64,000 nt of DNA from Syntrophaceae bacterium (GTDB lineage Bacteria > Desulfobacterota > Desulfomonilia > UBA1062), in contig JBDKSM010000035.1 of assembly GCA_039680665.1 (NCBI GenBank), forward strand, positions 337-64,336. The letters run 5' to 3'. Numbering within the stretch: the stretch's first letter is position 1; the number at the start of each line of letters is the position of its first letter. Under the pieces are notes generated by a model. The model worked only from the letters and a program-made list of their open reading frames with translations, made no database searches and was not told the origin of the DNA. Both the position numbers and the translations under genes were made by a program. Positions 1 through 51,983 of the stretch are shown piece by piece.

Positions 1-3000
1 CCTGGGGCTGTATGGGCCTGTTTCTTCAGGCACACCGTAAACCAGAATGTGGAGCCTTGGTTTTCCACGCTTTCCACCCCGATGGCGCCGCCCATCATCT
101 CGGTGAGCTGTTTGCAGATCGTGAGCCCCAGGCCGGTGCCCCCGTATTTGCGGGTAATGGAGGCATCCGCCTGGGTAAACGGCTGAAACAGGCTGTCGAT
201 CTTATCGGCCGGGATACCGATGCCCGTATCGCGAACCTCGAAACGGATCAGGGCTTTCGTATCGTCCTCGCCCTCCATGGTAACATGGATGATGATTTCA
301 CCCTGGCGGGTGAACTTAATGGCATTGCCTACCAGGTTGGTCAGGATCTGACGGAGCCTTCCTGGATCGCCCTGGAGCAGGGAGGGGACCTCCGGGTCCA
401 CCAAACAGCCGAATTCCAGCCCGCTTTCCTGGGCGCGGAAGGCCAGGAGTTCATTGATGTCCTCCAAGGCCGTGCGCAGATCGAAATCAATAATTTCAAG
501 TTCATATTTACCGGCCTCGATCTTGGAAAGGTCAAGGATATCGTTGATGATGGTCAACAAGCTGTCGGCGCTTTTCATGACCAGATCGGCATATTGGCGC
601 TGCTCCGTGGTCAAATCGGTATCCAGCATCAAGGCGGTCATACCCATGATGCCGTTCATGGGGGTACGGATTTCGTGGCTCATGTTGGCCAGAAAATCAC
701 TCTTGGCTTTATCGGCCGCCTCGGCCACCAGCTTGGCCTTGATCAGTTCGTCCTCGGCCAGTTTTCTTTTAATGGCATTGGCGAAGAGGTTGCCTAAGAC
801 ACGCAACAGGCTGATGGTCTCTTCGTCGCCGCGCAGACGCTTTTCCATTGTTACAAAACCGATATAGCCCAAGGTGGAATTCTCGTAGATCATGGGCACG
901 ACCGCCACCGATTGCCAACCCCAGGATTGGAACAAGGCCTTCTCGCGATACCACATGGCCGGAAGATCCATCACGCTCGGTATAAAGACGTGCTCATAAC
1001 GGTTCAGGAACTCAATGCCCATCGGGAACATGCCGGGAGAAATTACCGGTAGACCCGCCGGGTCCACCTCTTGGCCGTCGACGCTCCAGGCATGCGTGAG
1101 GGTGAGGACGCTGACGGAAGAGTCGAGCTGGAGGACATACGCTTTATCGGCGCCGTAAAAGGCCCCCATGGTGGCCAGTCCCCGCCTGATCCCGGCGTCG
1201 ATATCCTGGGAAGACAGGTTCACGAATTCAGTGGAGAGATCCAAGACCAACTGCTCGATCTTCTCGCGTTCACGCAGTTTTTCCTGGGCCTGCATCAGGG
1301 CCGTGATGTCACGACTGATGCGCAACAGTCCAATCACGTTCCCATCTGGGGTCCTTAGCGGCGCCTTCAAGGTATCGAGCAGAACCGCGCGTCCGTCGGG
1401 ATAGGAGACCCATTCATCGGCATGCACGGTTATCCCTTCTTCCATGGTGGCGCGGTCGCTTTCCCGCAAGGTCTCGGCGATCTCGGGAGCAAACAGATCA
1501 CCATCGGTGGCGCCCACGATGTCATCGCGGGTGTGTCCCACCCGTTCGGCAAAGGCCGGATTGCTTCCCAAATAGGTTCCACGCTTGTCCTTGAAGCAGA
1601 TGCTGTCGGGGATGGAATCCAACAGTCCCGTCAGGAGCGTCGTCTGCCGGGCCAGAGCCTCCTCCGTGCTCTTGCGGGCCGTGATATCGCGCAGTATGCC
1701 GATACTGAACCATTGATCACCCAGTCTGGCCGGCGATACGGAGAGCTCAATGGGAAACTCGGTGCCATCCTTGCGTAGCGCCGTCAACTCGAGCAGTTTG
1801 CCCATGGCCTGGCCTTCCCCGGTTCTCTGGAATTGCATGAATCCCCGGTGCTGTTCTTCATGGTAGCGCGGAGGGGCCAACAATCGATGGAGGTTCTCGC
1901 CCAACGCCTCCTGCCGCGTGTACCCGAACATGTTTTCGGCCGCCGGATTCCAGAAGGTTATGCCGCCGGTATGATCCATCATGATAATGGCGTCCAAGGC
2001 CTGAGTGCTGATCAGACGGAAACGTTCCTTGCTTTCCTGCAAGGCCTTTTGGGCCCGTTTACGATCAGTGATATCGCGCGCCACGGCCTGAAACCCGACG
2101 GGGAGGTTGTTCTCCAACAGGAGCTGAACATTCTGTCCCAGCCAGACCTCGCTCCCGTCCTTGGCGAGCATGGGGATCTCATTGTAGGTCGTACGGATGC
2201 GCTTCACCAATTGCCGGCCGAATATCCGCGCCACCTCATTGCGGTAGGCCTTGGGGATAAATTCCAGATAATGCCGTCCGAGCATCTCCTGTTCGCTGAA
2301 ACCGCAGATCCTTTCCGCGACCTGATTGATAAAGATGATGTTGCCGTTCTGATCCGCCCGGTAGATGATGTCTCCAGCAGCCTGCACCAGCGTCCGAAAC
2401 CGCTCTTCGCTCTCCTCCAAGGCCTTCTTTGAATCCTGCAAAGAGTCGAGCATGCGATTGATCGATGTAGAGAGTCCGGTCAATTCATCATGGCCTTTAA
2501 TGGCGATCCGCGCAGATAAATCACCGGAGGCGCTGATATCTCTCACGGCTGAGCTGATAAGGTTTAGGCGTCCAAGCACCTGGGTATGAAGCAGCCCCAC
2601 TATGGTAAGACCTGAGAGAATACCTGCGAACAATATGAAGAACACGTAGTATTTAACATTCAGACGGTTCTGCTGGTAGATCCCACGATGCATATCCACC
2701 CGCAGAATAAGCGCGGGTCGATTATATATATCCTCGATCAGGGTGTATCCGGCAATGTACTCCGAACTCAGCTCCTTGACCAGAATGGCCCCCGTACGCG
2801 ATAAGATGCCATACGCCGTTCGGAAGTCCTGGGGCAGCTCGGCATCGGCGATCTGGCGCACGGACAGTGACAGATGGGTCGTAGCAGCCAAGCGGGATAT
2901 CAAGGCCTGGTCAAGATAGCGACCCATAATTACTACTCCACGGGTCGGCCCCTTCTGCTCACTGGTCAGAATGGGATAGGAACTGATTAAAAGCGGCCCC

Positions 3001-3483
3001 TCCGGCAGGAGGATAATGCCTTCCCTATGGGTGTCGAGGGATGTATATTGAAACAAGGATGTACCCTCGTCCGCCCCTTGAAGCATGCGCCGCAAACCCT
3101 GCGGGATGGGCATTAACCTCCCTTGTGAATCCAGAGCCTTGGCAAAGACAACCTTTCGAGAGCTATTCAGATAGACAATCAGGTTGATGTTGATGCCCAT
3201 CAGGCTCTCGTCATTAAGGGTGGCCTTAATATAAGCATCATTCTCATCTTTGATGAATGCATAGGTATCGTCCCAGGCGGCCCAGTCGCGGTTGATGGTA
3301 GCCAGGCCGTCAAGCTCCCCCTGCAGCGCGCTTTGAGCCCGCATGACATGTTCGCGGGTATAGCTTTCTTCCAGGCCCATCAGTCCCTTGAAGAGAATAT
3401 ACCGCGAGGTGACATAAAACAGCGCCATCAAACAGAGGAATATGGCGCCTACGATGATGAGAGATTTGTTGCGTAGCGTCATA
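1..3483 (-). CDS. Hybrid-type sensor histidine kinase, 5' (N-terminal) part in window; C-terminus runs past position 1. Domains: TM, ~250-aa extracytoplasmic sensor (CHASE4-like), second TM, HAMP, three PAS, GAF, HisKA, HATPase_c
   Basis: Manual minus-strand translation from ATG (revcomp of cat at 3481-3483) gives [23 protein letters not shown]... with no stop down to position 1. HisKA motif [15 protein letters not shown] and HATPase motif [13 protein letters not shown] are present. Absent from the ORF track because no stop codon lies inside the window. Confidence 0.88.
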
Positions 3484-3678
3484 CGCAGCCGTCCCCGGTA
3501 TGCATGCAGCCTATTGCGCGCACGTGCTTGCACCCCTTTTCCTTGTAGGCTTATCCATCAGTTTCGGTTGAGCGGGACCGAATCTTGAATGGCGGGACGA
3601 TTCGTCCTTTACGTAAATAAATTTTTTACACCATTTGCACCATCGATGATCATTATAGCCCCTGTTCTATAACAAATA

Positions 3679-3708
3679 TTGACATCCGGCATGCATTTGG
3701 CGTATAAG
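3679..3708 (+). promoter_or_regulatory. sigma70-like promoter for the acyl-CoA dehydrogenase gene: -35 TTGACA (3679-3684), 18-nt spacer, -10 TATAAG (3703-3708)
   Basis: Consensus -35 hexamer and 4/6 match to the -10 hexamer, ~45 nt upstream of the RBS AAGGAGGG/ATG at 3751, in an AT-rich intergenic region. Confidence 0.45.
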
Positions 3709-3709
3709 A

Positions 3710-3725
3710 ATGAATGCTCATTCAT
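3710..3725. promoter_or_regulatory. Perfect 7-2-7 palindrome ATGAATGctCATTCAT directly after the -10 element; candidate repressor operator (FadR/TetR-type)
   Basis: revcomp(ATGAATG)=CATTCAT, perfect, spacer 2 nt, overlapping the predicted transcription start. Confidence 0.35.
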
Positions 3726-3750
3726 AAATAACGGAACTAAGGAGGGTTGT

Positions 3751-5589
3751 ATGGCAAGTCAGTGGGTTGACGAGAGGGATCTAAAATTCCAATTGTTTGA
3801 GATGTTTAAGATAGGGGAGACCCTGCTTGGCAAAGGCCGCTATGTGGACCATGATGTCGATATGTGCAACATGGTGCTCGATCAGGCTCAGAAATTCGCC
3901 GAGCTTGAGATAGCACCCACCTATCCGGACGAGGTGCAGCGCAAACCGGTCGAGGCCGAATTCAAAGAAGGCAAGGTCATCGTTCCTGAGGCGTATCACC
4001 GGCTCTGGAAGCTCTATTGCGAAGGCGGCTGGATGAGCACGGCGGATCAGCCCGAGGTCGGCGGACAGTCATTCCCGGCCTGCGTGGCCGCAGCCTGCGC
4101 CAACATGTTCCTGTCCACCAATCAGGCCTTTATCATGTATCCCGGTCTCACCCACGGCGCCGCGCGCCTGATGGAAGATTTCTTCCAGGGCTCTTTGCGG
4201 AACGTCGTCCTGGAAAAGATGTACACCGGCGAATGGGCGGGCACCATGTGCTTGACCGAGCCGGGCGCCGGTTCGGATGTCGGGGCCTTGAAGACCACCG
4301 CCAAGAAGAACGCTGACGGCACCTATTCCATCACCGGCACCAAGTGCTTCATCTCGGCCGGCGACCACAACCTGACCCCGAATATCATCCACCCGGTGCT
4401 GGCCAGGATTGAAGGCGACCCCAAAGGCACCAAAGGCATCTCCATCTTCATGGTGCCCAAAATCAGGTTCAACGAGAAGGGCGAGCTGGGCGAGCCCAAT
4501 GACGTATCCTGCGGCGGCATCGAGAGCAAGATGGGCATCCATGGCAACGCCACCTGTACGCTCAACTTCGGCGAGAACGGCAAGTGTCTCGGCTGGCTCA
4601 TGGGTGAAGAGCGCGAAGGCATGAAGATCATGTTCCACATGATGAACGAAGAGCGTCAGGGAGTGGGCATGATGGGCGCCTCTCTGGCGACCGCGGCCTG
4701 GCTGCATGCATTGGAATATGCCAAGGGCAGATTCCAGGGCCAGAACATCATCGCCATGGCCATGAAAGACGAGAACGCCCCCCAGGTGCAGATCATCCAG
4801 CACCCGGACGTGCGTCGCATGCTTCTCAAAATGAAGTCCACCACCGACGGAATCCGGGCTCTGTGCCTCCTGTGCTACTTCTGCATGGACAATGAGTTCA
4901 ACGCCATGATCGAAGGCAATGAGGAGCAGAAGGAATACTGGCACGGCCTGATCGAGGTGCTCACCCCCCTGGTCAAGTCCTACGGCACCGAGGCCGGCAT
5001 GGATGTCTGCGGCCTGGCCGTCCAGACCTACGGCGGCTACGGCTTCTGCCGCGAGTATCCGGTTGAGCAGATGATGCGCGACCAGAAGATCAATATGATT
5101 TACGAAGGCACCAACGGCATCCAGGCGATGGACCTGTTGGGCCGCAAACTGGGCATGAAGAAGGGCGCCTACTTTATGAACCTGCTGGGCTTCACCAAGC
5201 CCGCCATTGATGAAGCCAAAGCCAACGAGGCCTTCAAGGCCGAAGCCGCGGTGGTCGAGGGCGCCTTGAACGCCTGCGCCGAAACCGCCATGGCATTCGC
5301 CAAGATGATCAAGGTCACCCCGTATGTCCCGCTCATCGGCGCCGCCGACTTCCTCAACTGCATGTCCGAAGCACTGGTCGGCTGGCTGCAGCTCTGGATG
5401 GCCAACGCCGCCACCAAGGGCCTGGCCAGCGCCACGAGCGACAAGGACAAGGCCTTCTACACCGGCAAGCTCCATGCCGCCAAGTTCTACATCAACCGCA
5501 TCACCGGTCTGGTTCCGGCTAAGCTCGAAAACCTGAAGAAGGACGAACAGAGCGCCATGAACATCCCGGAAGAGGCCTTCGCCGTCTAA
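3751..5589 (+). CDS. Long-type acyl-CoA dehydrogenase (FadE/AidB-like, ~612 aa)
   Basis: ORF 3679..5589 trimmed to ATG 3751, preceded by RBS AAGGAGGG. Acyl-CoA dehydrogenase family protein with a long C-terminal extension; sequence starts MASQWVDERDLKFQLFEMFK. Confidence 0.85.
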   Translation: MASQWVDERDLKFQLFEMFKIGETLLGKGRYVDHDVDMCNMVLDQAQKFAELEIAPTYPDEVQRKPVEAEFKEGKVIVPEAYHRLWKLYCEGGWMSTADQPEVGGQSFPACVAAACANMFLSTNQAFIMYPGLTHGAARLMEDFFQGSLRNVVLEKMYTGEWAGTMCLTEPGAGSDVGALKTTAKKNADGTYSITGTKCFISAGDHNLTPNIIHPVLARIEGDPKGTKGISIFMVPKIRFNEKGELGEPNDVSCGGIESKMGIHGNATCTLNFGENGKCLGWLMGEEREGMKIMFHMMNEERQGVGMMGASLATAAWLHALEYAKGRFQGQNIIAMAMKDENAPQVQIIQHPDVRRMLLKMKSTTDGIRALCLLCYFCMDNEFNAMIEGNEEQKEYWHGLIEVLTPLVKSYGTEAGMDVCGLAVQTYGGYGFCREYPVEQMMRDQKINMIYEGTNGIQAMDLLGRKLGMKKGAYFMNLLGFTKPAIDEAKANEAFKAEAAVVEGALNACAETAMAFAKMIKVTPYVPLIGAADFLNCMSEALVGWLQLWMANAATKGLASATSDKDKAFYTGKLHAAKFYINRITGLVPAKLENLKKDEQSAMNIPEEAFAV

Positions 5590-5615
5590 GGCTTTACCAA
5601 AATCCAGCAAGGCAT

Positions 5616-5657
5616 CTGGGGAATCCCTTTATCAGCGGGGTTCCCCAGATCTTTTTC
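5616..5657 (+). terminator. Rho-independent terminator downstream of the acyl-CoA dehydrogenase
   Basis: 12-bp stem CTGGGGAATCCC/GGGGTTCCCCAG (1 mismatch), 9-nt loop, followed by ATCTTTTTC. Confidence 0.6.
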
Positions 5658-5798
5658 AGCTCAAAACCATACTCGCCTCCGCATGAAGGTCCCCCCTCGA
5701 CCATCATCCACATGATATTCTTTCATGTTTTTGATCATGGTTTGCCGAAAGACCCCATTATGGCCGTTGTTCGATGCCAGGGACAGGGGAGGTAACCG

Positions 5799-6116
5799 AT
5801 GACGGAAAAAGAATTAGCGCTGTTTCTGAAACGCTTAAGCTCTGAATTGCGTTCCGTGTATAATACCATCGCCCAGCAGATGCCTGATGACGCCCTGCGT
5901 CACGGGCGCACCAAGGGGCATGATAAGCTCGCTATCCAACGTCAGGAAGATCTCTGGCGCGAATCAAACCCTGACGCCGACATCGCGCATGTCCTGGTCC
6001 CTGAAAATAGCCCGTCAGACAGAGCGTACGGCAAGTTTACCGCGCTTGACGCACTGGACGCCTTTATCGATGATTTGAACGAGGACATCGCCACCCTGCT
6101 GGAGAACACGGCTTAG
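5799..6116 (+). CDS. Hypothetical small acidic protein (105 aa)
   Basis: Intergenic ORF with start MTEKELALFL..., acidic C-terminus (DALDAFIDDLNEDIATLLENTA). No recognisable motif. Confidence 0.35.
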   Translation: MTEKELALFLKRLSSELRSVYNTIAQQMPDDALRHGRTKGHDKLAIQRQEDLWRESNPDADIAHVLVPENSPSDRAYGKFTALDALDAFIDDLNEDIATLLENTA

Positions 6117-6151
6117 TCAAAAGACTCGCCCACGAAAACCTGCAGCAACAT

Positions 6152-7426
6152 TCAATCCCGTTCGTCCACGACGGCGGCATCTCCCTTGAACGCAGCTCCC
6201 GGAACGATACGCACACTCATGCGAACACCCGTGCCGGCATGGATGGCCCTTTCCAATTTCTCGACAAAGGCCTTTTGGGTACGCATCTCGTCAAAGAAGA
6301 GATTGTCTCCCACCTCGAGCAACACATCGGCCTTTTCATAGGATCCCTCGCGGTAGATATGCAGCTGGGTGCGGGTCTCCGCCCCTTCGTGTTTGAGAAT
6401 TTCACGAATGCGTTCAGGCGTCACACCCATGCCTTTGATCTTGATGGCATCATCCGTACGGCCGTAGATTTCGGCCAGACGGATATGCGTGCGCCCGCAC
6501 GGACATGCCCCATCCATCAGCATGGTGATGTCGCCGGTGCGATAACGGATCAGAGGAAAGGCCTCACGCGCCAGCGTCGTGATCACGAGCTCACCCTTAA
6601 CCCCGGACGGCAAAATCTGTCCGCTGGACGGATCGATGACCTCGGGGATAAAGAAGTCCTCGTACAGGTGCAGTCCCTCGTGCGCGCCGCACTCGCCCGC
6701 GATGCCCGGACCGAGCACCACGCTCGATCCGTAGCTGTTGAAAACCTCGACGCCCAGATCAGCGAAACGCTGCCTTACCTTGGGGCTCAGACGCTCGGCG
6801 CCCAGGATGGCGCGCCGCAGCCGCAAACCCTTGGGATTAATTCCCAGTTCGCCCAGCTTATCGAGCAGGATCAGGGCATAGCTCGGCATACAGGCGATCA
6901 CCGAGGTCAGGTAATCGCGCATGATGGTCACCTGCTCGGCCGTATTGCCGATATCGGCCGGTATGACCGAGGCACCGATGAGCTCCGCGGCGGCATGAAA
7001 GCCGAATCCACCGGTCATCAACCCGTAACGGAAGGCAATCTGGATCACGTCATCACGCGTGATGCCGGCGCAGATAAGGAAGCGCGCCACCAGTCTGGCC
7101 CAGGCCTTCAGGTCATTGGCGGTATGCCCCGTCACAATGGGCTTGCGCGCCTGACCCGATGAGGTATGGATGCGCACCACCTCCCTTAAAGGCACGGCGA
7201 ACATGTCATAGGGATAGCACTGCTCGATCTCCTGGCGGGTCGTGAACGGTAGCAAACTGATATCGGAAAGGGTTTTGACGTCCTCGGGCAATATGCCCGC
7301 CGCATCTAGGGCGCGGCGGTAATGGGCCACGTTCAGATAGGCCCGGTTCAACGTGGATTGAAGCCGCTCAAGCTGCAGCACCTTGAGCTCTTCCCTCGGC
7401 ATGGTTTCATAGCGCTCTTCCAGCAT
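6152..7426 (-). CDS. Phenylacetate-CoA ligase family (PaaK / coenzyme F390 synthetase-like adenylating enzyme), 425 aa
   Basis: Start trimmed to MLEERYETMPREELKVLQLERLQ... (ATG at 7424-7426, RBS AGGGAGGGAAGG). PaaK-family signature regions (…HTSSG…; …YGSS…) are present. Last gene of the liv-like operon. Confidence 0.85.
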   Translation of the reverse strand: MLEERYETMPREELKVLQLERLQSTLNRAYLNVAHYRRALDAAGILPEDVKTLSDISLLPFTTRQEIEQCYPYDMFAVPLREVVRIHTSSGQARKPIVTGHTANDLKAWARLVARFLICAGITRDDVIQIAFRYGLMTGGFGFHAAAELIGASVIPADIGNTAEQVTIMRDYLTSVIACMPSYALILLDKLGELGINPKGLRLRRAILGAERLSPKVRQRFADLGVEVFNSYGSSVVLGPGIAGECGAHEGLHLYEDFFIPEVIDPSSGQILPSGVKGELVITTLAREAFPLIRYRTGDITMLMDGACPCGRTHIRLAEIYGRTDDAIKIKGMGVTPERIREILKHEGAETRTQLHIYREGSYEKADVLLEVGDNLFFDEMRTQKAFVEKLERAIHAGTGVRMSVRIVPGAAFKGDAAVVDERD

Positions 7427-7439
7427 CGCCTTCCCTCCC

Positions 7440-8207
7440 TCATTCCTCGCTTCCCAGGTAAGCCTCCAGCACCCGCGGGTCCTTACGGACGATCTGCGGG
7501 GCACCCGCGGTCAGCACGCGGCCTTCGGCCATGACAATAATACGCTGACAAATGTCCATGATCAAATTCATATCGTGTTCAATGATGACTACCGTGAGAT
7601 CGAGCTCAGACTTGAGGCGCACGATAAGCTCGGAAAGTTTCTCGGTCTCCTTGGGATTCATGCCGGCGGCAGGTTCGTCCAGGAATATGACGGTCGGCTT
7701 GGCGGCCAGGGCCCGCGCTATCTCCACACGGCGCTGATTGCCGTAGGATAGATTGACGGCTTGCTCATCGGCCATGTCCTGCAGGCCCAGGCGTGTCAAC
7801 AACCTATGCGCTTCATTTCGGAGATTGCGTTCTTCGACACGCTTGGCCGGGGTATTGAACAGGCTGCGGCCGAAACCGGCCTTGAGTCTGCTATGGCCGC
7901 CCACCATCACATTTTCAAGCACGCTCATATCGCGAAAGATTTCCAGATTCTGGAAGGTGCGCGCCATGCCGAGCCGGACCCGGCGGTGAGGACGCAGCCG
8001 GGTGATGTCGCGGCCATGCAACAGGATACGCCCATCATCCGGCGTAAAAAGTCCTGTCAGGACATTGAAGAGCGTGGTCTTGCCCGCGCCGTTCGGTCCG
8101 ATGACACCCAGGATCTCGCCCTGGATAACCTCGAGCGATACATCGCTCAGGGCCTGGATGCCCATGAAATGCTTGCTTAAGGATGCTGCCTGCAGCACTA
8201 CTCCCAC
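7440..8207 (-). CDS. ABC transporter ATP-binding protein, LivG-like
   Basis: Walker A GPNGAGKTT and a LivG-type N-terminus; 13-nt gap to the downstream paaK-like gene. Confidence 0.85.
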   Translation of the reverse strand: MGVVLQAASLSKHFMGIQALSDVSLEVIQGEILGVIGPNGAGKTTLFNVLTGLFTPDDGRILLHGRDITRLRPHRRVRLGMARTFQNLEIFRDMSVLENVMVGGHSRLKAGFGRSLFNTPAKRVEERNLRNEAHRLLTRLGLQDMADEQAVNLSYGNQRRVEIARALAAKPTVIFLDEPAAGMNPKETEKLSELIVRLKSELDLTVVIIEHDMNLIMDICQRIIVMAEGRVLTAGAPQIVRKDPRVLEAYLGSEE

Positions 8208-8926
8208 ACCTCACGATAGCCCTTGCCCAGATAGGCGCGCTGGATCTCGTTGCTGGCCTTGAGCTCAGATGTCGGGCCTTCCATGACTATGCGCCCGGTC
8301 TCGACCACATAACCCCGCTGCGCCAGGCCCAGCGCCATGCGTGCGTTCTGCTCCACCAGCAGCAGGCTCAAGCCCTCTGTTTGGTTCAACTCTTTGATCT
8401 TTTCATAGATCTGGCTCACCATAATGGGCGCCAGGCCCATGGAAGGTTCATCCAAAAGCAATACCTTGGGCCGGGCCATCAAGGTCCGGGCAATGGCCAG
8501 CATCTGCTGCTCACCGCCCGAAAGTGTGCCCGAGAGTTGCCGTCGGCGCTGTCCCAGTATGGGGAAGAGTGCCTCCATGGCAGCCAAATCCTTCTTGATC
8601 TTGGCTCGATCCTTACGCGAATAGGCCCCCAGCACCAGGTTGTCATGCACGCTCAAGCCCCTAAACAACCGCCGACCTTCGGGCACATGCCCGATGCCGC
8701 GCTTGAGGATGCGCTCCGAGCTCAGATGGGTTATTTCGTTCTCACCCAAGACGATCTCGCCGGAGGCCGCTTTCACGATCCCGGAAATCGCCCGCAGGAT
8801 TGTGCTCTTGCCGGCGCCGTTGCCGCCGATCAGGGCCACGATCTCGCCCGGATTCACATGCAGGCTCACCCCCTTGACGGCATGGATATGCCCGTAATAG
8901 GTGTGCAGGTTCCTGACCTGGAGCAT
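8198..8926 (-). CDS. ABC transporter ATP-binding protein, LivF-like
   Basis: MLQVRNLHTYYGHIHAVKGVSL...GGNGAGKST; overlaps its neighbours by 10 nt and 1 nt (translational coupling). Confidence 0.85.
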   Translation of the reverse strand: MLQVRNLHTYYGHIHAVKGVSLHVNPGEIVALIGGNGAGKSTILRAISGIVKAASGEIVLGENEITHLSSERILKRGIGHVPEGRRLFRGLSVHDNLVLGAYSRKDRAKIKKDLAAMEALFPILGQRRRQLSGTLSGGEQQMLAIARTLMARPKVLLLDEPSMGLAPIMVSQIYEKIKELNQTEGLSLLLVEQNARMALGLAQRGYVVETGRIVMEGPTSELKASNEIQRAYLGKGYREVWE

Positions 8927-9792
8927 CAGCGGGCCCCCCCGAAGATCTCAGTGATCTTGACGCGGCCCATGATGCCCTGGGGCCTGAAAACCATCATGGC
9001 CACCAGCAAACCGCCGTAAAAAATATCCTGGTAATCCGCCAGGGGCCGCAGCACTTCGGGCAGCACGGTCAGCAGGGCCGCGCCCAAAAGCGCGCCCGGG
9101 ATACTGCCGATGCCGCCAAGGACCACCATGGACAGGATCATGATGGAGGTGTGCATGCCAAATGTGTGCGGGTTGATGTAGGCCGTATAATGGGCATAGA
9201 GACTGCCGGCCAATCCGGCCCAGAAGGCGCTGACCACGATCGCCAGGGTCTTGTAGCCGTAGATGTTGATGCCCATGAAGCTGGCCGTGATGTCGTTGTC
9301 CCGAATGGCGGCCCAGGCCCGCCCGATCTTCGAGTTCTTCAAGGTATACATACTGACGATCATGAAGCCCAGGATCACGACGCAGAGGAGAAGGAAGCCG
9401 GGTTTGGAATACAGCGGATTGCCGCAGAGCGTCACGGGCGGGATACCCACCAGCCCGTCGGTCCCGCCCGTGATGTCGAGGTTCATGAATATGATCTCGA
9501 CGATAATCCCGAAGCCCAAGGTGACGATGGCCAGGTAATCATCCTTGACGCGCAGCGCCGGCAGCGCCAGCGCCAGACCTAACAAGGCCGTAATAATCCC
9601 TGCGCTGCCGAAGGCTACCGGAAAACCGAGCCCCTTGATCATGATGATCCCGCTGGCGTAGGCCCCAATACCGAAGAAGGCCGCATGCCCGAGCGACACC
9701 AGTCCGGCGAAACCCACGCTGATGTTCAGGCTCAAGGCCAGCATGGCGAAGATGGCCACCATGATGAGCACATGCAGGATATATACACTCAT
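8926..9792 (-). CDS. Branched-chain-amino-acid-type ABC permease, LivM-like
   Basis: Polytopic membrane protein in operon between LivH-like and LivF-like genes. Confidence 0.8.
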   Translation of the reverse strand: MSVYILHVLIMVAIFAMLALSLNISVGFAGLVSLGHAAFFGIGAYASGIIMIKGLGFPVAFGSAGIITALLGLALALPALRVKDDYLAIVTLGFGIIVEIIFMNLDITGGTDGLVGIPPVTLCGNPLYSKPGFLLLCVVILGFMIVSMYTLKNSKIGRAWAAIRDNDITASFMGINIYGYKTLAIVVSAFWAGLAGSLYAHYTAYINPHTFGMHTSIMILSMVVLGGIGSIPGALLGAALLTVLPEVLRPLADYQDIFYGGLLVAMMVFRPQGIMGRVKITEIFGGAR

Positions 9793-34965: not shown

Positions 34966-35040
34966 GCGGGAATAACTCAGTGGTAGAGTGTAACCTTGCC
35001 AAGGTTAAAGTCGCGGGTTCGAATCCCGTTTCCCGCTCCA
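34966..35040 (+). tRNA. tRNA-Gly (anticodon GCC), CCA encoded
   Basis: Cloverleaf GCGGGAA/TTCCCGC acceptor stem, anticodon loop TTGCCAA, T-loop GGTTCGAATCC. Confidence 0.9.
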
Positions 35041-35174: not shown

Positions 35175-36468
35175 TCACGGATAGGCTCGATACATCATGC
35201 GCGGGAAGGGGATCGTCTCGCGTACGTGCTTCAGCCCGCAGATCCAGGCCAGAGTCCTTTCGATGCCCATGCCGAAGCCGGAGTGCGGCACGCTGCCATA
35301 GCGGCGGACATCCAGATACCAGCCGTAGCGTTCGGGATCGAGGCCCTGGTCCCTGATAGATTTCAAGAGTACGTCGATATCCTCTTCGCGCTGCGAGCCG
35401 CCGATGATCTCTCCGTAGCCTTCGGGCGCCAGAAGGTCGGCGCACATGACGACCTCCGGCCGATCCGGGTGCTGTTTCATGTAGAAGGCCTTGGCCTGCT
35501 TGGGATAGCACTCGATGAAGACCGGCTTGTCATAGAGCTTGGTCAGAATGGTCTCGTCGTCGCCGCCCAAGTCGATGCCCCATTCGATATTCGAACCGTT
35601 CTTTTGCAGGATTTTCACTGCCTCATCGTAGCTCAGCCGATAGAAGGGTGTCGTGATCTTTTTCAGGGGTTCCAAATCGCGCTCGAGGAACGTCAGCTCC
35701 GCGGCCCGCTCCGCGATAGTGTTCTGCACGATGTAGGCCACCAGGTTTTCCTGGACCTCTAAGTTCATCGTATGGTCATGAAAGGCCATCTCGCCCTCAA
35801 CCATCCAAAACTCGGTCAGATGCCGGCGGGTCTTGGATGGTTCGGCCCGGAAGGTGGGCCCGAAGCAATAGACCTTGCCAAGACCTGCCATGGCGGCCTC
35901 CAGATAGAGCTGGCCGGTCTGGGACAGATAGGCTTTGCCCAGGTCGAAATACTCCACGCTGAAGAGATTGGAGGAATCCTCGCCTACCGTGGTGGTGAAG
36001 ATGGGGGTATCCACCAAGGTGAAGCCATTCTTGTAGAAGAAATCGCGCACATGCCGCACCAGGGTATCGCGTATGCGCAGGATCGCTATCTGGCGTGGGG
36101 ACCTAAGCCAGAGGTGCCGGTGGGTTAACAGAAAATCCGGACCATGCTCCTTTTTGCCGATCGGGAATTCCTCGGATTTGTGGACGATGGTGATGGAAGC
36201 GGCATGCAGCTCGAATCCACCCGCGGCGCGTTCCTCTTTGACCACCCGTCCGGTGGCGATAACGGAGGACTCCAGCGGTAATTTGCGGATCTCTTCATAG
36301 AACTCCCCGAAGGTTTCGCGTTCGGCCACGACCTGGCAGGTGCCGGTGCCGTCGCGCAGGATGAGGAAGGAGACCTTGCCGCTCGACCGGCGGTTCGGGA
36401 CCCAGCCCTGGATGGTGACCTCCGCGCCGATATGCGCGGGAAAATCGCGGATCGTGCATATACTCATA
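35175..36468 (-). CDS. asnS: Asparagine--tRNA ligase
   Basis: Trimmed to MSICTIRDFPAHIGAEVTIQGW (ATG 36466-36468, RBS GGAAGGAGAG). Class II motifs FRAE and GxGxER plus a C-terminal IPFPR. Confidence 0.9.
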
Positions 36469-36625
36469 CATTGCTCTCCTTCCAAGTCTGAAAAAAATTC
36501 ATAGCGCAGATGACGCGGCCGATCAAGCGGAAGAAGAACATACGTCTTCGCACCTCCGATCATTCGCACCCAGGGAAATATGCGCTTGACACTCAAAGTC
36601 CAATTCGATAAGGAACCCACATGAT

Positions 36626-36698
36626 GGGCCCTTAGCTCAATTGGTAGAGCCACCGGCTCATAACCGGTAGGTCCCTGGTTCGATTCCAGGAGGGCCCA
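36626..36698 (+). tRNA. tRNA-Met (anticodon CAU; elongator-type, or possibly tRNA-Ile2 if lysidinylated), CCA not encoded
   Basis: Acceptor GGGCCCT/AGGGCCC with G1:C72 paired (not an initiator), anticodon loop CTCATAA. Confidence 0.85.
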
Positions 36699-36795
36699 CT
36701 CAAAAGGTAGGTAGGGTGAAAGACAGATCATACATTAAAGCGAGGTGAAGGATAAAAGGGGTGCAGAGATGCACCCCTTTTCTTTTTGAAAACGT

Positions 36796-47365: not shown

Positions 47366-49279
47366 ATGGAAAGAATCGACCCCTTGAAGCTTGACCGTAT
47401 ATTGAGTGATATCGAGATCCCGACGCTGCCTTCGATCGCCACGGCGATCATGGAACGCACGCTGGATGAAAAGACCAGCGCGAGGCAGCTCGCGGACATG
47501 GTGGAGAAGGATCAGGCCCTGGCCGCCAAGGTCCTCAAGGTGGCCAACTCGCCCTTCTATCGCCGCATCCAGGAGATCTCCACTATCCGTTCCGCCGTGG
47601 TCCTCTTAGGCCTCAACGTACTCAAGAGCATCGTGCTTTCCATATCCGTGATCAACATGTTCAACGACAAGCGCAAAAAGGTGCTCGACCTGTATCTTTT
47701 CTGGCAGCACAGCATCGCCTGCGCCGTCTGTGCCCGGACGATCGCCAACAAGAGCTTCCCGGCCATGGCCGAGGACGCCTTTGCGGCCGGGCTGCTGCAC
47801 GATCTGGGCAAGGTGGTCTTCGATCAGACCATCTGCAACAAGGGCGAGTATCAGGAAGTCCTGGATATCATGGACCGCGGCGGGATGGATATCATCCGGG
47901 CCGAGCAGGATGTGATCGGCATCGACCATGCCGCTCTGGGCAAGCGCCTGATGGAGAAGTGGAACCTGCCGGCCATCTTGAGTCTGGCGGTCGCGCAACA
48001 CCATTACGCCCCGGCGGGACCGCTCAAGGAATCCGAGGGCAAGCGCTTAAGCGCCATCGTTCACGTGGCCGACCTGATCACCAATCATCTGGGCTTAGGG
48101 ATTTACAAGATGGCCACCGGATTCATCGAGCCCTCGATCCTCAAGCAGCTCGATCTGTCCAGCCAGGATATCCAGGAACTCTCCCTGTCCCTCAAGGACA
48201 ACATATCGGCCATCAGCGAGGAACTGGGCATCCCCAAGGCTGAGCCCAAGACCTATTTCGAGGTGTTGCAGTCGGCCAATGCCCAGCTGGGGAAATTGAG
48301 CCTCGATCTGGAGCAGAAGAAGATGGCCCTGGAACGCCGCGCCGTGGAGCTCTCGGGCCTGAATCAGATGAGCACCCAGCTGCAGTCGGCGATCAAGCTG
48401 GCCGAAATCGCCTCGGTCGTGACGACCAACGCCCTGACCATCATGGGATCCAAGAAAGTCCGCTGCATGATCCGGCTCAACAATCTGCGCATCATGGTCA
48501 CGGACTCTTTCCTGATCGGCAATGATATCCAGACCCGCTCAGGCGTGGCCGGCGCCACCAAAGAGCTGCTCGACCGTACCCGCGGCGTTATCCCCAAGGG
48601 CGGCGGCATCATGTATGCGCCCATCAAGGTCGAAGACCAGCCCATCGGCATCATAGAATCGACTCCCTTGGAGGAGCAGCATGAGGACATCACCCAGAAG
48701 ACCATCCTGCTGAGGACCATCGCGGATGTCGGGGCCCAGGCCATTCAACGGGCCACGCTGTATACCAAGAACATCAAGTCGGAACGCCTGGCGGCCATAT
48801 CCAAGACCGCCATCGCCGCCAACCACGAGATCAACAGCCCCTTGACCACCATCCTCGTCAAGCTTGATACGCTGCTGCGCAACACCGCCTTAAAGCCCGA
48901 GATCCAGGGCGCCTTAAAGGAAATCAAAGATGAGACCAACAAGGTGCGCGTCGTGGTGAAGAAGATGCTGGAGATCTCGGATGTGGTGGAGACCGATTAC
49001 GTCAAGACGGAAGCCAAAACCGAAAAAATGCTCGACCTGAACAAGGCGGCTCAGAAACCGATTCAGACCCCCAAGCCCGCCACGCAAGCGCAGCCACAGA
49101 CTGCCGAGACCCCGCCTGCGGAAGATGTTCCGGGCTTTGAAGACTACCTGGACAGCGGCAAGGAAGCCCCTTTGATTAATCCGCAGCAGGCGGGGGCAAA
49201 GCCCGCTGAATCAGCCACGCCGGATTCGCCCACCCCCGTCGACGACAAGCCGGGGTTCGAGGAGTATATCGACGAATAA
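47366..49279 (+). CDS. HDOD-domain signalling protein with coiled coil, GAF-like region, kinase-less HisKA/DHp-like domain (conserved His in AANHEINSPLTT) and an acidic repetitive C-terminal tail
   Basis: HDOD N-terminus (…LPSIATAIMERTLDEK…, …VANSPFYRRIQEISTI…); no HATPase_c; two C-terminal PGFE[DE]Y[LI]D repeats. Confidence 0.7.
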   Translation: MERIDPLKLDRILSDIEIPTLPSIATAIMERTLDEKTSARQLADMVEKDQALAAKVLKVANSPFYRRIQEISTIRSAVVLLGLNVLKSIVLSISVINMFNDKRKKVLDLYLFWQHSIACAVCARTIANKSFPAMAEDAFAAGLLHDLGKVVFDQTICNKGEYQEVLDIMDRGGMDIIRAEQDVIGIDHAALGKRLMEKWNLPAILSLAVAQHHYAPAGPLKESEGKRLSAIVHVADLITNHLGLGIYKMATGFIEPSILKQLDLSSQDIQELSLSLKDNISAISEELGIPKAEPKTYFEVLQSANAQLGKLSLDLEQKKMALERRAVELSGLNQMSTQLQSAIKLAEIASVVTTNALTIMGSKKVRCMIRLNNLRIMVTDSFLIGNDIQTRSGVAGATKELLDRTRGVIPKGGGIMYAPIKVEDQPIGIIESTPLEEQHEDITQKTILLRTIADVGAQAIQRATLYTKNIKSERLAAISKTAIAANHEINSPLTTILVKLDTLLRNTALKPEIQGALKEIKDETNKVRVVVKKMLEISDVVETDYVKTEAKTEKMLDLNKAAQKPIQTPKPATQAQPQTAETPPAEDVPGFEDYLDSGKEAPLINPQQAGAKPAESATPDSPTPVDDKPGFEEYIDE

Positions 49280-49336: not shown

Positions 49337-50137
49337 CTATTGCCTGATCAGGCGCAGGCGCGGAAAATCCTGAGGTCTAAGCGGGTAGGATGCGCGCACC
49401 GGATTGATATCGATCCCCCCCCGGCGGGTGTAGAAACAGCCGACCAGGAGCTCTTGCGGGGAGCAGCGCACGGAGATGTCGGTGAAGATCCGCTCGCAGC
49501 ATTCTTCATGGAAGCCCTGATGTTCACGGAAAGAGCAGATGTAGCTCAGCAGGCCGGCAGCGTTGATGCGCCCTCCCCGGTAGCGGATCACGACGCTGCC
49601 CCAATCGGGCTGGCCGGTAATGGGACACAGTGAACGCAGGAGCCCGGTGTTCAGCGTCTCCTCGATGTTCTCGGTGGTGGTGGTGAGAAAGTCCGGATCC
49701 GGAGCCTCCCGGATGTCCACCTCGTCCAGCGCATCGAGCGATAGCCCGGGCGCCTGGGTCTGCCATGCCAGGGCCGGAAAATCGGCCGCATGGAAGATGG
49801 TTACGGTAAGCCATGGGGTATTAAGGATCGCATTCAGGTCGTGGCGGATGGTCTGTTCGACTTGGGCGGCGGAGGCGAAGCGTACATAGGCCAGACCGTT
49901 CAGGTAGAGCTTGAGGGATTTGGACTCGACCAGGCAGGCGCTCTCGCACGGATAGACCAGCTCGAGGATGGCGGCTTGGGGACACCCTCGAGGACCCAGC
50001 CAGGAGAGCTCATAGCCGCGCCAGAGGTCGAAACCGTGCATGGGCACCCGGCGGACCGGCCGGGGAATGGGCGTCAGGATGGACGGGTCGTGTCCGCGGG
50101 GCGAGGCCACCGTCTTGCCGAGCAGGGTATCGTTCAT
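49337..50137 (-). CDS. queF: NADPH-dependent 7-cyano-7-deazaguanine reductase (bimodular QueF type)
   Basis: QueF motif ESKSLKLYL and catalytic-Cys region CPITGQPDWG. Trimmed to MNDTLLGK (ATG 50135-50137), overlapping the queC stop. Confidence 0.85.
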   Translation of the reverse strand: MNDTLLGKTVASPRGHDPSILTPIPRPVRRVPMHGFDLWRGYELSWLGPRGCPQAAILELVYPCESACLVESKSLKLYLNGLAYVRFASAAQVEQTIRHDLNAILNTPWLTVTIFHAADFPALAWQTQAPGLSLDALDEVDIREAPDPDFLTTTTENIEETLNTGLLRSLCPITGQPDWGSVVIRYRGGRINAAGLLSYICSFREHQGFHEECCERIFTDISVRCSPQELLVGCFYTRRGGIDINPVRASYPLRPQDFPRLRLIRQ

Positions 50138-50796
50138 GCCAGGTACCTCGTGGGGTCGAGTCCCTGCTCGAAACCGAGGGCGGCCTTGCGTTCGATGCAG
50201 GTGGCACAAACCCCGCAGTGCATCTCTCCGCCCTTGTAGCACGACCAGGTCCGCGCGAAATCAAAGCCCAGGGAACGGCCCAGCTTTGCAAGGGCCTCTT
50301 TGGTGAGATCGACAAAGGGCGCCTTGACCCTGACCCCGGCATAGGTTCCCAGCATGGCGGCCTGGTCCATGGCATCCATAAAGCTCCGGCGGCAATCGGG
50401 GTACACCGGATGGTCGCCGGCATGGGCGGCGATAAGCACGGTGCCGATCTTGAGGTCTTCGGCATAGCCGACGGCGATGCTGAGCATGATCCCGTTGCGG
50501 AAGGGGACCACGGTCGAGAGCATATTGGCCTGCGCATACGAACCTTCGGGAACGGCCTCGCCTGATTTGAGCAGACTGGAAGAAAACAGTTCATCCATAA
50601 AGGGCAGGTCCACCTTGATAAAGCGGGCCTGGTAGGCATGGGCAAGATCTTCCGCCATGGCGAGCTCTTTGGCCGCATGCTTGGAGCCGTAATCGAAGCT
50701 CAAGGCATGGACCTTGCGGTAGCGCTGGCTGGCCCATGCCAGGAGCACGCCGGAATCCATGCCGCCCGAAAGCAGAATCACCGCTTCGCCTGACAC
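50134..50796 (-). CDS. queC: 7-cyano-7-deazaguanine synthase
   Basis: PP-loop SGGMDS; C-terminal Zn-binding CGVCATC. Confidence 0.9.
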   Translation of the reverse strand: MSGEAVILLSGGMDSGVLLAWASQRYRKVHALSFDYGSKHAAKELAMAEDLAHAYQARFIKVDLPFMDELFSSSLLKSGEAVPEGSYAQANMLSTVVPFRNGIMLSIAVGYAEDLKIGTVLIAAHAGDHPVYPDCRRSFMDAMDQAAMLGTYAGVRVKAPFVDLTKEALAKLGRSLGFDFARTWSCYKGGEMHCGVCATCIERKAALGFEQGLDPTRYLA

Positions 50797-51132
50797 CTAA
50801 GGTTTGTCCCCCTTCGTCCCTTTCAGGAGCAGCGCCCCCCCGCCCATATGCTTCCAGAAATTGTCCTCCACGTTGAACACGACCTCGCAGTCGCACTTGC
50901 CCTTTAATTCGCTGAAAACCTTGAGCGTGACTTCCACATTGATCTCAGGGAATTGCGCCAGTATTTTTCTGGTCAAGGGCCGCAGGTGATGATGGCTGCA
51001 ATTCCACTTGGCCTTGAAGCCCTCGAAATGCAGATCGATGCCTTGCGGTCCCTTGAGCGCGCGCAAAAACGTATGCCACCGAAGGTTCTCCGGGGTCATG
51101 ATGCGTTCATCGAAGGCGATGTTGGGGTCCAT
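50797..51132 (-). CDS. Unassigned small protein (112 aa) embedded in the que operon at the position normally held by queD
   Basis: Start MDPNIAFDERIM 1 nt after the queE stop, stop abutting the queC start. Lacks the CxxxHGH and N-terminal His pattern of PTPS/QueD. Confidence 0.5.
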   Translation of the reverse strand: MDPNIAFDERIMTPENLRWHTFLRALKGPQGIDLHFEGFKAKWNCSHHHLRPLTRKILAQFPEINVEVTLKVFSELKGKCDCEVVFNVEDNFWKHMGGGALLLKGTKGDKP

Positions 51133-51133
51133 A

Positions 51134-51760
51134 CTAAACACCGCGCCTTGCGTCAAAGGTGAGGATATGGAGCCGCGGGGTCATGGTAAGCCCCTGTTGC
51201 CTGCAGAAGGCAAAGGTCTGCGCCATCATGCCCAGCTGCTCGCGTCTGGTCGAACCCTCAGGCATGATGTAGACCTTTTCGGCCGCTAGGTGATTGTCCC
51301 TGATGAATCGCATGATCACCTGTTCCGAAGTCTGGCCATGATAGATGAACTTGAAATAATCCGCCCGCGAAAGAGAGACGGGCTCGATCCGCCAGGCATG
51401 GTCGATATACTTCGGTGAACAGACGACCGTGGCGCCTTCGATGCGGGGGATGCCCGCCTTACCGCTGGTTTCATACTGGATGGCATAACCGCGCTCGATG
51501 AGCCTTTCATGCAGCGCCGCAAGCTCCTCCCATTGGAGCAGCGGCTCGCCGCCGGTGATCACTATGTTGCGGCAGGCATACCGCTCAAGCACTGTCAGAA
51601 TTGCCTCCTGGTCCATCTCCCGGGCTTCATCCCAGGCATAGCGGGTATCGCACCAGGGACAGTACGGCGCAAGGCATCCGCCCAGCCTCAAGAATACGGC
51701 CGGTTTACCGAGCCAGACCCCTTCCCCCTGGAGCGAATAAAAGATCTCGGTCACCTTCAT
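51134..51760 (-). CDS. queE: 7-carboxy-7-deazaguanine synthase (radical SAM)
   Basis: MKVTEIFYSLQGEGVWLGKPAVFLRLGGCLAPYCPWCDT (QueE-type cluster-binding region). Confidence 0.85.
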   Translation of the reverse strand: MKVTEIFYSLQGEGVWLGKPAVFLRLGGCLAPYCPWCDTRYAWDEAREMDQEAILTVLERYACRNIVITGGEPLLQWEELAALHERLIERGYAIQYETSGKAGIPRIEGATVVCSPKYIDHAWRIEPVSLSRADYFKFIYHGQTSEQVIMRFIRDNHLAAEKVYIMPEGSTRREQLGMMAQTFAFCRQQGLTMTPRLHILTFDARRGV

Positions 51761-51983
51761 AGCCTGTCTTTTGTGTATGCCTGTATCGGCCGAGCTTTAC
51801 AAGGCAAATCTCTGTTTCAGGTCTGCAATTCCATAGCGGCGCAAACTCTGCTTGACATGTGCTGGCATATCTTTCAGAATCAGGGACCTGAACCGGGCAT
51901 GCGGGGCGTGGCACGCGCGATGGCGCAAGGAAAAGCTCAGGCAACCACGGTTCGGATACTAACGTTCTTTCGAGGGGGAGGAT

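Follow-up and report, generated by a model that had tools for sequence, protein, structure and literature searches.

A divergent DUF2695-family gene between queE and queC in a preQ0 synthesis operon of a Syntrophaceae bacterium

The minus strand of the window (the whole 64,000-nucleotide stretch of DNA analyzed here) carries the genes queE, ORF X, queC and queF in close succession, flanked by Dus and ATP-grasp_5 genes. The junctions were read directly on this strand. The queE stop codon TAG (51136-51134) is separated by one base (51133) from the ATG start codon of X (51132-51130), and the X stop codon TAG (50799-50797) is followed with a 0-nt gap by the queC start codon GTG (50796-50794), which is ATG in the orthologs. 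This is the arrangement that an earlier note on this DNA had described. The ORF span in that note is likewise right, whereas its length of 112 aa counts the stop codon. Further downstream, queF begins within the end of queC, at an ATGA overlap of start and stop codon (50137-50134). QueC and QueF have domain matches well above the Pfam cutoffs. For QueE, the best NCBIfam models are all QueE types, yet each scores below its cutoff (the best at 97 bits vs 300); the protein is orthologous to proteins named QueE by NCBI. The coordinates of all features are compiled in Table 1.

Table 1. Features of the que operon and of ORF X, in positions of the window
Feature	Position	Strand	Description
queE	51760..51134	-	208 aa, radical SAM 7-carboxy-7-deazaguanine synthase subfamily, Cx4Cx2C cluster motif
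ORF X	50797..51132	-	DUF2695-family protein, 111 aa + stop codon (112 codons)
queC	50134..50796	-	7-cyano-7-deazaguanine synthase, 220 aa; PF06508 211 bits, TIGR00364 198 bits
queF	49337..50137	-	266 aa, bimodular NADPH-dependent preQ0 reductase; QueF_N + QueF, TIGR03138 275 bits
Intergenic region	51761..51983		between queE and the divergent ATP-grasp_5 gene; no queD, no riboswitch
Core DUF2695-like domain	50863..51105	-	X residues ~10-90: TPE..W..F motif, helix, beta-hairpin, three helices
Codons C45-S46-H47	50992..51000	-	first half of the putative metal site (CxH)
Codons C80-D81-C82-E83	50884..50895	-	CDCE signature of the family, N-terminus of the last helix
Shine-Dalgarno-like AAGGGGGA for queC	50807..50814	-	within the last X codons (K-G-D-K-P)

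The radical SAM cysteines of QueE lie in the motif GC(L/V/I)(A/E)PYCP(W/F)CDT (window 51650-51676, QueE residues 29-37), with a spacing of Cx4Cx2C instead of the canonical Cx3Cx2C throughout this QueE subfamily, including the related loci L003, L070, L071, L072 and L073. Neither a preQ1 riboswitch nor any other RNA was detected close to the operon by Rfam, at gathering or at permissive thresholds. An HDOD-HD protein adjoins the que operon in the window (47366-49279, plus strand) and, in a different arrangement, in the Desulfomonilia locus L099 (2313-3740); it may be a recurrent neighbor of queE-queC-queF in this group. Elsewhere in the window, Rfam located two plus-strand tRNA genes at 34966-35037 and 36626-36698 (72 bits each). 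The second one overlaps the 5' end of a lysyl/aspartyl-type tRNA synthetase ORF (35175-36731, minus strand), so the true start of this ORF is probably further downstream than called. At the edge of the window (1-3680), four ORFs (12-797, 1071-1358, 1422-1778 and 1833-2432) have no Pfam match and a GC3 of 0.56-0.61, compared to 0.7-0.8 elsewhere, and the following stretch of about 1.2 kb (2433-3678) contains no ORF of at least 60 aa. This region may be foreign or non-coding DNA.

The data all come from metagenome assemblies. Orthologs with 61-90% identity occupy the same operon position in eight loci on metagenomic and MAG contigs, and their pairwise dN/dS, taken where dS is unsaturated, ranges from 0.05 to 0.12. 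With the family HMM, X scores E = 1.8e-33, and its GC3 of 0.75 matches that of the neighboring genes. X is thus a real gene under purifying selection, rather than a chance ORF. In the most divergent orthologs, the X start overlaps queE as ATGA, just as the queC start does in L072, a relative without X. The Shine-Dalgarno-like sequence lies 8-11 nt ahead of the queC start; where the window has AAGGGGGA, the ortholog L003 shows AAGGAGGA. The ATGA starts, together with a Shine-Dalgarno sequence within the end of X, suggest how coupling was preserved. Because the tail of X encodes the Shine-Dalgarno sequence of queC, conservation of this tail may partly reflect a ribosome-binding constraint at the nucleotide level.

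X and QueD/PTPS (PF01242) are alike in size (111 aa compared to about 120-130 aa), in the presence of Cys and His residues and in co-transcription with queE, queC and queF. Moreover, X has the His-rich motif WNCSHHH (residues 43-49), reported correctly in the earlier note, which considered X either a highly divergent QueD or an unrelated protein. However, the CxxxHGH Zn-His/Cys motif of QueD, which that note had already described as lacking in X, is indeed absent from X in a motif scan, as it is from every long ORF of the 64-kb window. Neither PF01242 nor any QueD model matched X at E <= 1 in Pfam and NCBIfam, and hhalign gave a probability of 0.13% for the X-family profile against E. coli QueD. 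The T-fold consists of a four-stranded antiparallel sheet packed against two helices. By contrast, the AlphaFold2 model of X computed from a 51-sequence alignment (pLDDT 89.8, pTM 0.79), which replaced a discarded run on only eight close orthologs (pLDDT 50), comprises a helix (residues 19-27), a two-stranded hairpin (35-42) and three further helices (52-58, 66-75 and 81-96). The predicted fold is therefore helical with one hairpin and not a T-fold, and the model had no match among solved and viral structures. A frameshift concealing a normal QueD was also sought and not found, since all eight loci retain an unbroken reading frame under purifying selection. Accordingly, the search for a T-fold/PTPS relationship came out negative at the levels of sequence, profile and fold, and it is the "unrelated protein" half of the earlier proposal that holds. 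That X is a highly divergent true QueD with a T-fold, or a frameshifted or artefactual ORF, can be dismissed with near certainty.

Could X then stand in for a missing QueD? Such a non-orthologous replacement, also put forward in the earlier note, would convert dihydroneopterin triphosphate to 6-carboxytetrahydropterin in genomes without queD, and would account for a gene co-transcribed with three downstream genes of the pathway. Indeed, no queD was detected among 34 window ORFs by Pfam, nor anywhere in the window by phmmer with E. coli and Desulfoluna QueD or by a two-sequence QueD profile, although the same E. coli query finds Desulfoluna QueD at E 4.9e-10. Precomputed Pfam annotation likewise shows no queD in the collinear 20 kb of L003, and none was found in the X-clade loci examined.

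Comparison of the queE/queC junction in relatives leads away from a replacement. X lies between queE and queC in the 10.8-kb Logan contig L070, whose QueE is 66% identical to that of the window. The Dus and ATP-grasp_5 flanks of the window recur in two X-less loci, a 530-kb JGI contig (L071; QueE 57%) and a Desulfomonilia MAG (L072, GCA_049975365.1; QueE 56%). In both, the order is queE-queC-queF, and queE and queC overlap directly, as TAATG in the former and as ATGA in the latter. A second Desulfomonilia genome (L099, GCA_036567785.1; QueE 49%) has the same order with a 2-nt gap. The family HMM, run on the X-less loci L071, L072 and L073, detected no DUF2695 ORF in any of them. In Desulfoluna (L100, GCA_030145185.1; QueE 45%), the order is queD-queE-queC...queF, and the queD product is a PF01242 protein with the motif KCSAFHGH. 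The earlier description of X as occupying the QueD slot therefore does not fit: queE abuts queC in three X-less relatives, clustered queD sits upstream of queE, and X was inserted where queD never sat. As a local queD is missing from the X-less sisters too, its absence predates X and lends no support to a replacement, which the helical fold and the wide occurrence of the family outside any que context (see below) also speak against. We regard a replacement as very improbable. X being neither QueD nor its substitute, the CPH4 synthase is presumably encoded elsewhere in these genomes. In a neighbor-joining tree (without support values), the X-bearing QueEs form one clade nested among X-less QueEs, indicating a single lineage-specific insertion. 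The simplest history is one insertion of a DUF2695 gene at an existing queE/queC junction, with no gene displaced.

The sole Pfam match of X at E <= 1 is PF10905 (DUF2695), with an E-value of 2.4e-4 and 21.6 bits against a gathering cutoff of 25; NCBIfam gave no match. An HMM of eight X orthologs, searched against 1.8 billion representative proteins, retrieved 519 proteins at E <= 1e-3 and 74 at E <= 1e-10. PF10905 is matched by 39 of 47 longer family members (best E 6.5e-20), and X orthologs, including P0007 and the L070 gene, are already tagged with it. Since members found with the X profile match PF10905, X belongs to DUF2695 as a divergent protein, with reciprocal links between the two profiles. 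The conserved domain exceeds the Pfam model, which covers only the last 53 positions of a shared unit of ~80 residues (X residues 10-90). This unit may stand by itself, be repeated in tandem or follow N-terminal extensions of unrelated sequence. Some members have two or three tandem DUF2695 domains (P0008 of 506 aa, P0010, P0028 and P0062); in the third copy of P0008, the CDCE cysteines are gone (DDLIV), suggesting that some repeats are degenerate. Other domains in the 47 proteins are Phage_zn_bind_8 (two), a Nudix-type zinc ribbon (one) and UBA (one). No match to X was obtained in a PDB sequence search, in PHROGs or PADLOC, or by tblastn in INPHARED phages and PLSDB plasmids, and a classical DUF2695 gene had no blastn match in E. 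coli genomes.

Alignment of 150 domains from outside the X clade revealed the family signature W..F...C...CDCE.FN. In the numbering of X, W19 is conserved in 142 and F22 in 147 of these domains, C45 in 148, C80 in 149, D81 in 148, C82 in 149, E83 in 132 and N87 in 136. X has all of C45, C80, D81, C82, E83, F86 and N87, which are 88-99% conserved except for F86 (66%). At position 32, 114 of these domains have Cys and the others Ile, Leu or Val; X has Ile. Among the 36 domains without C32, another Cys or His adjoins C45 in 21 and none does in 15, so that a candidate fourth ligand, either C32 or a Cys/His next to C45, is present in 135 of 150.

The upstream cysteine of PF10905 recurs in X, as does its C-terminal signature (I/L)L...F..xGGxCDCE(I/V)xFN(V). 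The short classical form of the family, known from Leminorella and from plasmids of Priestia, has CxH...CxC as X does, and H47, typical of these short forms, is invariant in the X clade. The long form differs in a GPEGC cysteine, present in 76% of its members, which X lacks. I32, H47 and an FW.xMGGG tail are conserved features of the X clade, the tail being confined to it, and this is the only sub-clade that was found within a housekeeping biosynthetic operon. X thus adds a new, divergent protein to a known orphan family, and its genomic setting is unusual.

The domain also resembles the small structural zinc sites of Cys4 or Cys3His type known from phages. Phage_zn_bind_8 (PF24623)-type modules are, like X, small, with three or four Cys/His ligands supplied by a hairpin and a helix N-terminus; they occur in phage early or DNA-metabolism regions, and DUF2695 is occasionally fused to Phage_zn_bind_8 or to zinc ribbons. 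Nevertheless, X matches none of these modules, and it differs in the unusual CxC spacing and in the conserved Asp and Glu interleaved with the cysteines.

To map the context of the family, we compared 61 loci with an X relative, taking one genome per species. Genes of the que pathway accompany just two of them, the nearest relatives: one in a MAG of Deltaproteobacteria (83% identity), the other in a MAG that carries the label Bacteriovoracaceae (61%). At the remaining 59 genomic loci, which belong to Chloroflexota, Acidobacteriota, Actinomycetota, CPR bacteria, Alphaproteobacteria, an archaeon and others, no QueE, QueC or QueF lies within 8 kb. IMG/VR added 24 family loci, several on contigs of 95-411 kb. 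Overall, none of 86 sampled loci outside the X clade (59 genomic, 24 viral and 3 metagenomic) has a que gene beside the DUF2695 gene. The nearest non-clade relatives (49-51% identity) lie on phage-like or IMG/VR contigs, and the metagenomic ones among them are surrounded by VRR-NUC, DUF5131, ParB, Endonuclease VII and runs of small ORFs. DUF2695 is therefore found across many phyla, mostly on phage or mobile-element-like DNA. One 95,161-bp contig (44344-60589) occurs in both sets, as part of a 'Candidatus Shapirobacteria' MAG in GenBank (L011) and as an IMG/VR virus (L075); this MAG bin probably includes a phage or prophage contig.

In a neighbor enrichment analysis of 37 genomic and 21 viral loci, no partner family recurred around DUF2695. 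The neighbors have a DNA-modification, restriction or replication flavor (methylases, ParB-like, Prim-Pol, HNH, Endonuclease VII, VRR-NUC). With such heterogeneous contexts and no recurrent partner, the general role of DUF2695 need not concern deazaguanines. A single family locus outside the X clade has a que gene nearby, namely a 110-kb viral contig of 64% GC (L093, IMGVR_UViG_3300033233_000015). Its positions 1-9100 hold a DNA-modification module of phage type with genes for an N6/N4 methylase, for QueC (151 bits), for a C5 methylase, for a ParB-like product and for DUF2695 (236 aa). QueC lies 4.7 kb from the DUF2695 gene, and several ORFs in between are without family match. On another phage locus (L084), a radical SAM gene two genes from DUF2695 was suspected to be QueE and turned out to be NrdG. 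Publications that mention the family do not address its function; one of them reports that DUF2695 is recurrent near tRNA-dependent cyclodipeptide synthases (PMC5767969). This co-occurrence (PMC5767969) and the L093 module are weak pointers to a role in deazaguanine or tRNA/DNA modification.

These contexts make it quite conceivable that X, derived from a phage or mobile element, has nothing to do with queuosine and uses the constitutively expressed que operon for its expression only, while acting, for example, in nucleic-acid binding or in phage-host conflict. Outside the X clade, an association with que genes was seen at none of the 59 genomic, one of the 24 viral and none of the 3 metagenomic loci, the neighbors are of the kind just described, and the one fusion partner that recurs is a phage zinc finger, putatively DNA-binding. 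On the other hand, the position of X and its coupling on both sides have been kept despite saturated dS and a protein identity down to 61%, its composition is fully ameliorated, its clade has conserved features of its own, and neither PADLOC nor PHROGs recognizes it. Given the promiscuous, phage-dominated contexts of the family, we consider such an unrelated passenger nearly as likely as a role tied to QueE and QueC.

We are confident of the following points taken together: X belongs to DUF2695, entered the operon by one insertion, is under purifying selection, is coupled on both sides, is neither QueD nor a substitute for it, and joined an ancestral queE-queC-queF operon. The best overall explanation, which we hold to be somewhat better than an even bet, is that of a captured DUF2695 gene whose product probably binds a metal ion and may assist preQ0 synthesis. 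A copy from a pool residing mostly in phages and mobile elements was inserted once, precisely at the queE/queC junction, in the ancestor of a Desulfomonilia-like sub-lineage of Thermodesulfobacteriota. The ancestral operon was queE-queC-queF, with queD, if clustered, upstream of queE. Since then, X has been kept by purifying selection, and it is translationally coupled to both neighbors.

The X protein probably binds one structural metal ion, most likely Zn, via C45, H47, C80 and C82. Judged from the pattern of conservation, this is probably a Cys3His site; the 15 of 150 family domains without an obvious fourth ligand count against a four-ligand site. Being made stoichiometrically with QueE and QueC, X may be an accessory or regulatory partner, in line with the pathway accessory factor that the earlier note had also considered. 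Its specific role as a non-catalytic partner of preQ0 synthesis, rather than a pathway enzyme, is a tentative proposal that we would put short of probable. The FW.xMGGG.L tail, which is clade-specific, conserved and of low pLDDT, is a candidate docking element. A more far-reaching version, namely that a phage-borne DUF2695 protein with a fold unlike any solved structure was domesticated as a metal-binding subunit or regulator of the QueE/QueC steps, appears unlikely at present.

D81 and E83, invariant and adjoining the cysteines, could also point to a site that is catalytic rather than structural. X might then be a small metalloenzyme with Zn or Fe on three cysteines and with Asp81 and Glu83 as catalytic residues, which adds or assists a pathway step, such as ammonia supply to QueC or the processing of an intermediate. 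Three invariant cysteines, the invariant D81 and the near-invariant E83 and N87 would suit such an enzyme, as would a fourth ligand position that is variable and missing in 10% of the domains, as in catalytic three-ligand zinc sites. However, the domain has only about 80 residues and no likeness to any enzyme fold, it is often in tandem or fused to zinc ribbons, and the association with the pathway is absent elsewhere in the family. We therefore think an enzymatic function improbable, and prefer a structural metal site.

Altogether, these results remove a tempting case of missing-enzyme replacement from a well-studied tRNA-modification pathway, and X gives no evidence for a new enzyme of this pathway. 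Instead, the locus presents a phage-type orphan gene captured precisely between two coupled housekeeping genes and long kept there. If X is unconnected to QueE and QueC, this would be a neat but ordinary insertion of a gene into an operon. If X works with them, this operon would offer the best access at hand to DUF2695, a family of hundreds of sequence clusters in bacteria, archaea and phages without structural relatives. Should X indeed be a domesticated subunit, it would provide the first functional anchor for this orphan family, and would hint that the phage copies act on 7-deazaguanine or on the tRNA/DNA-modification machinery.
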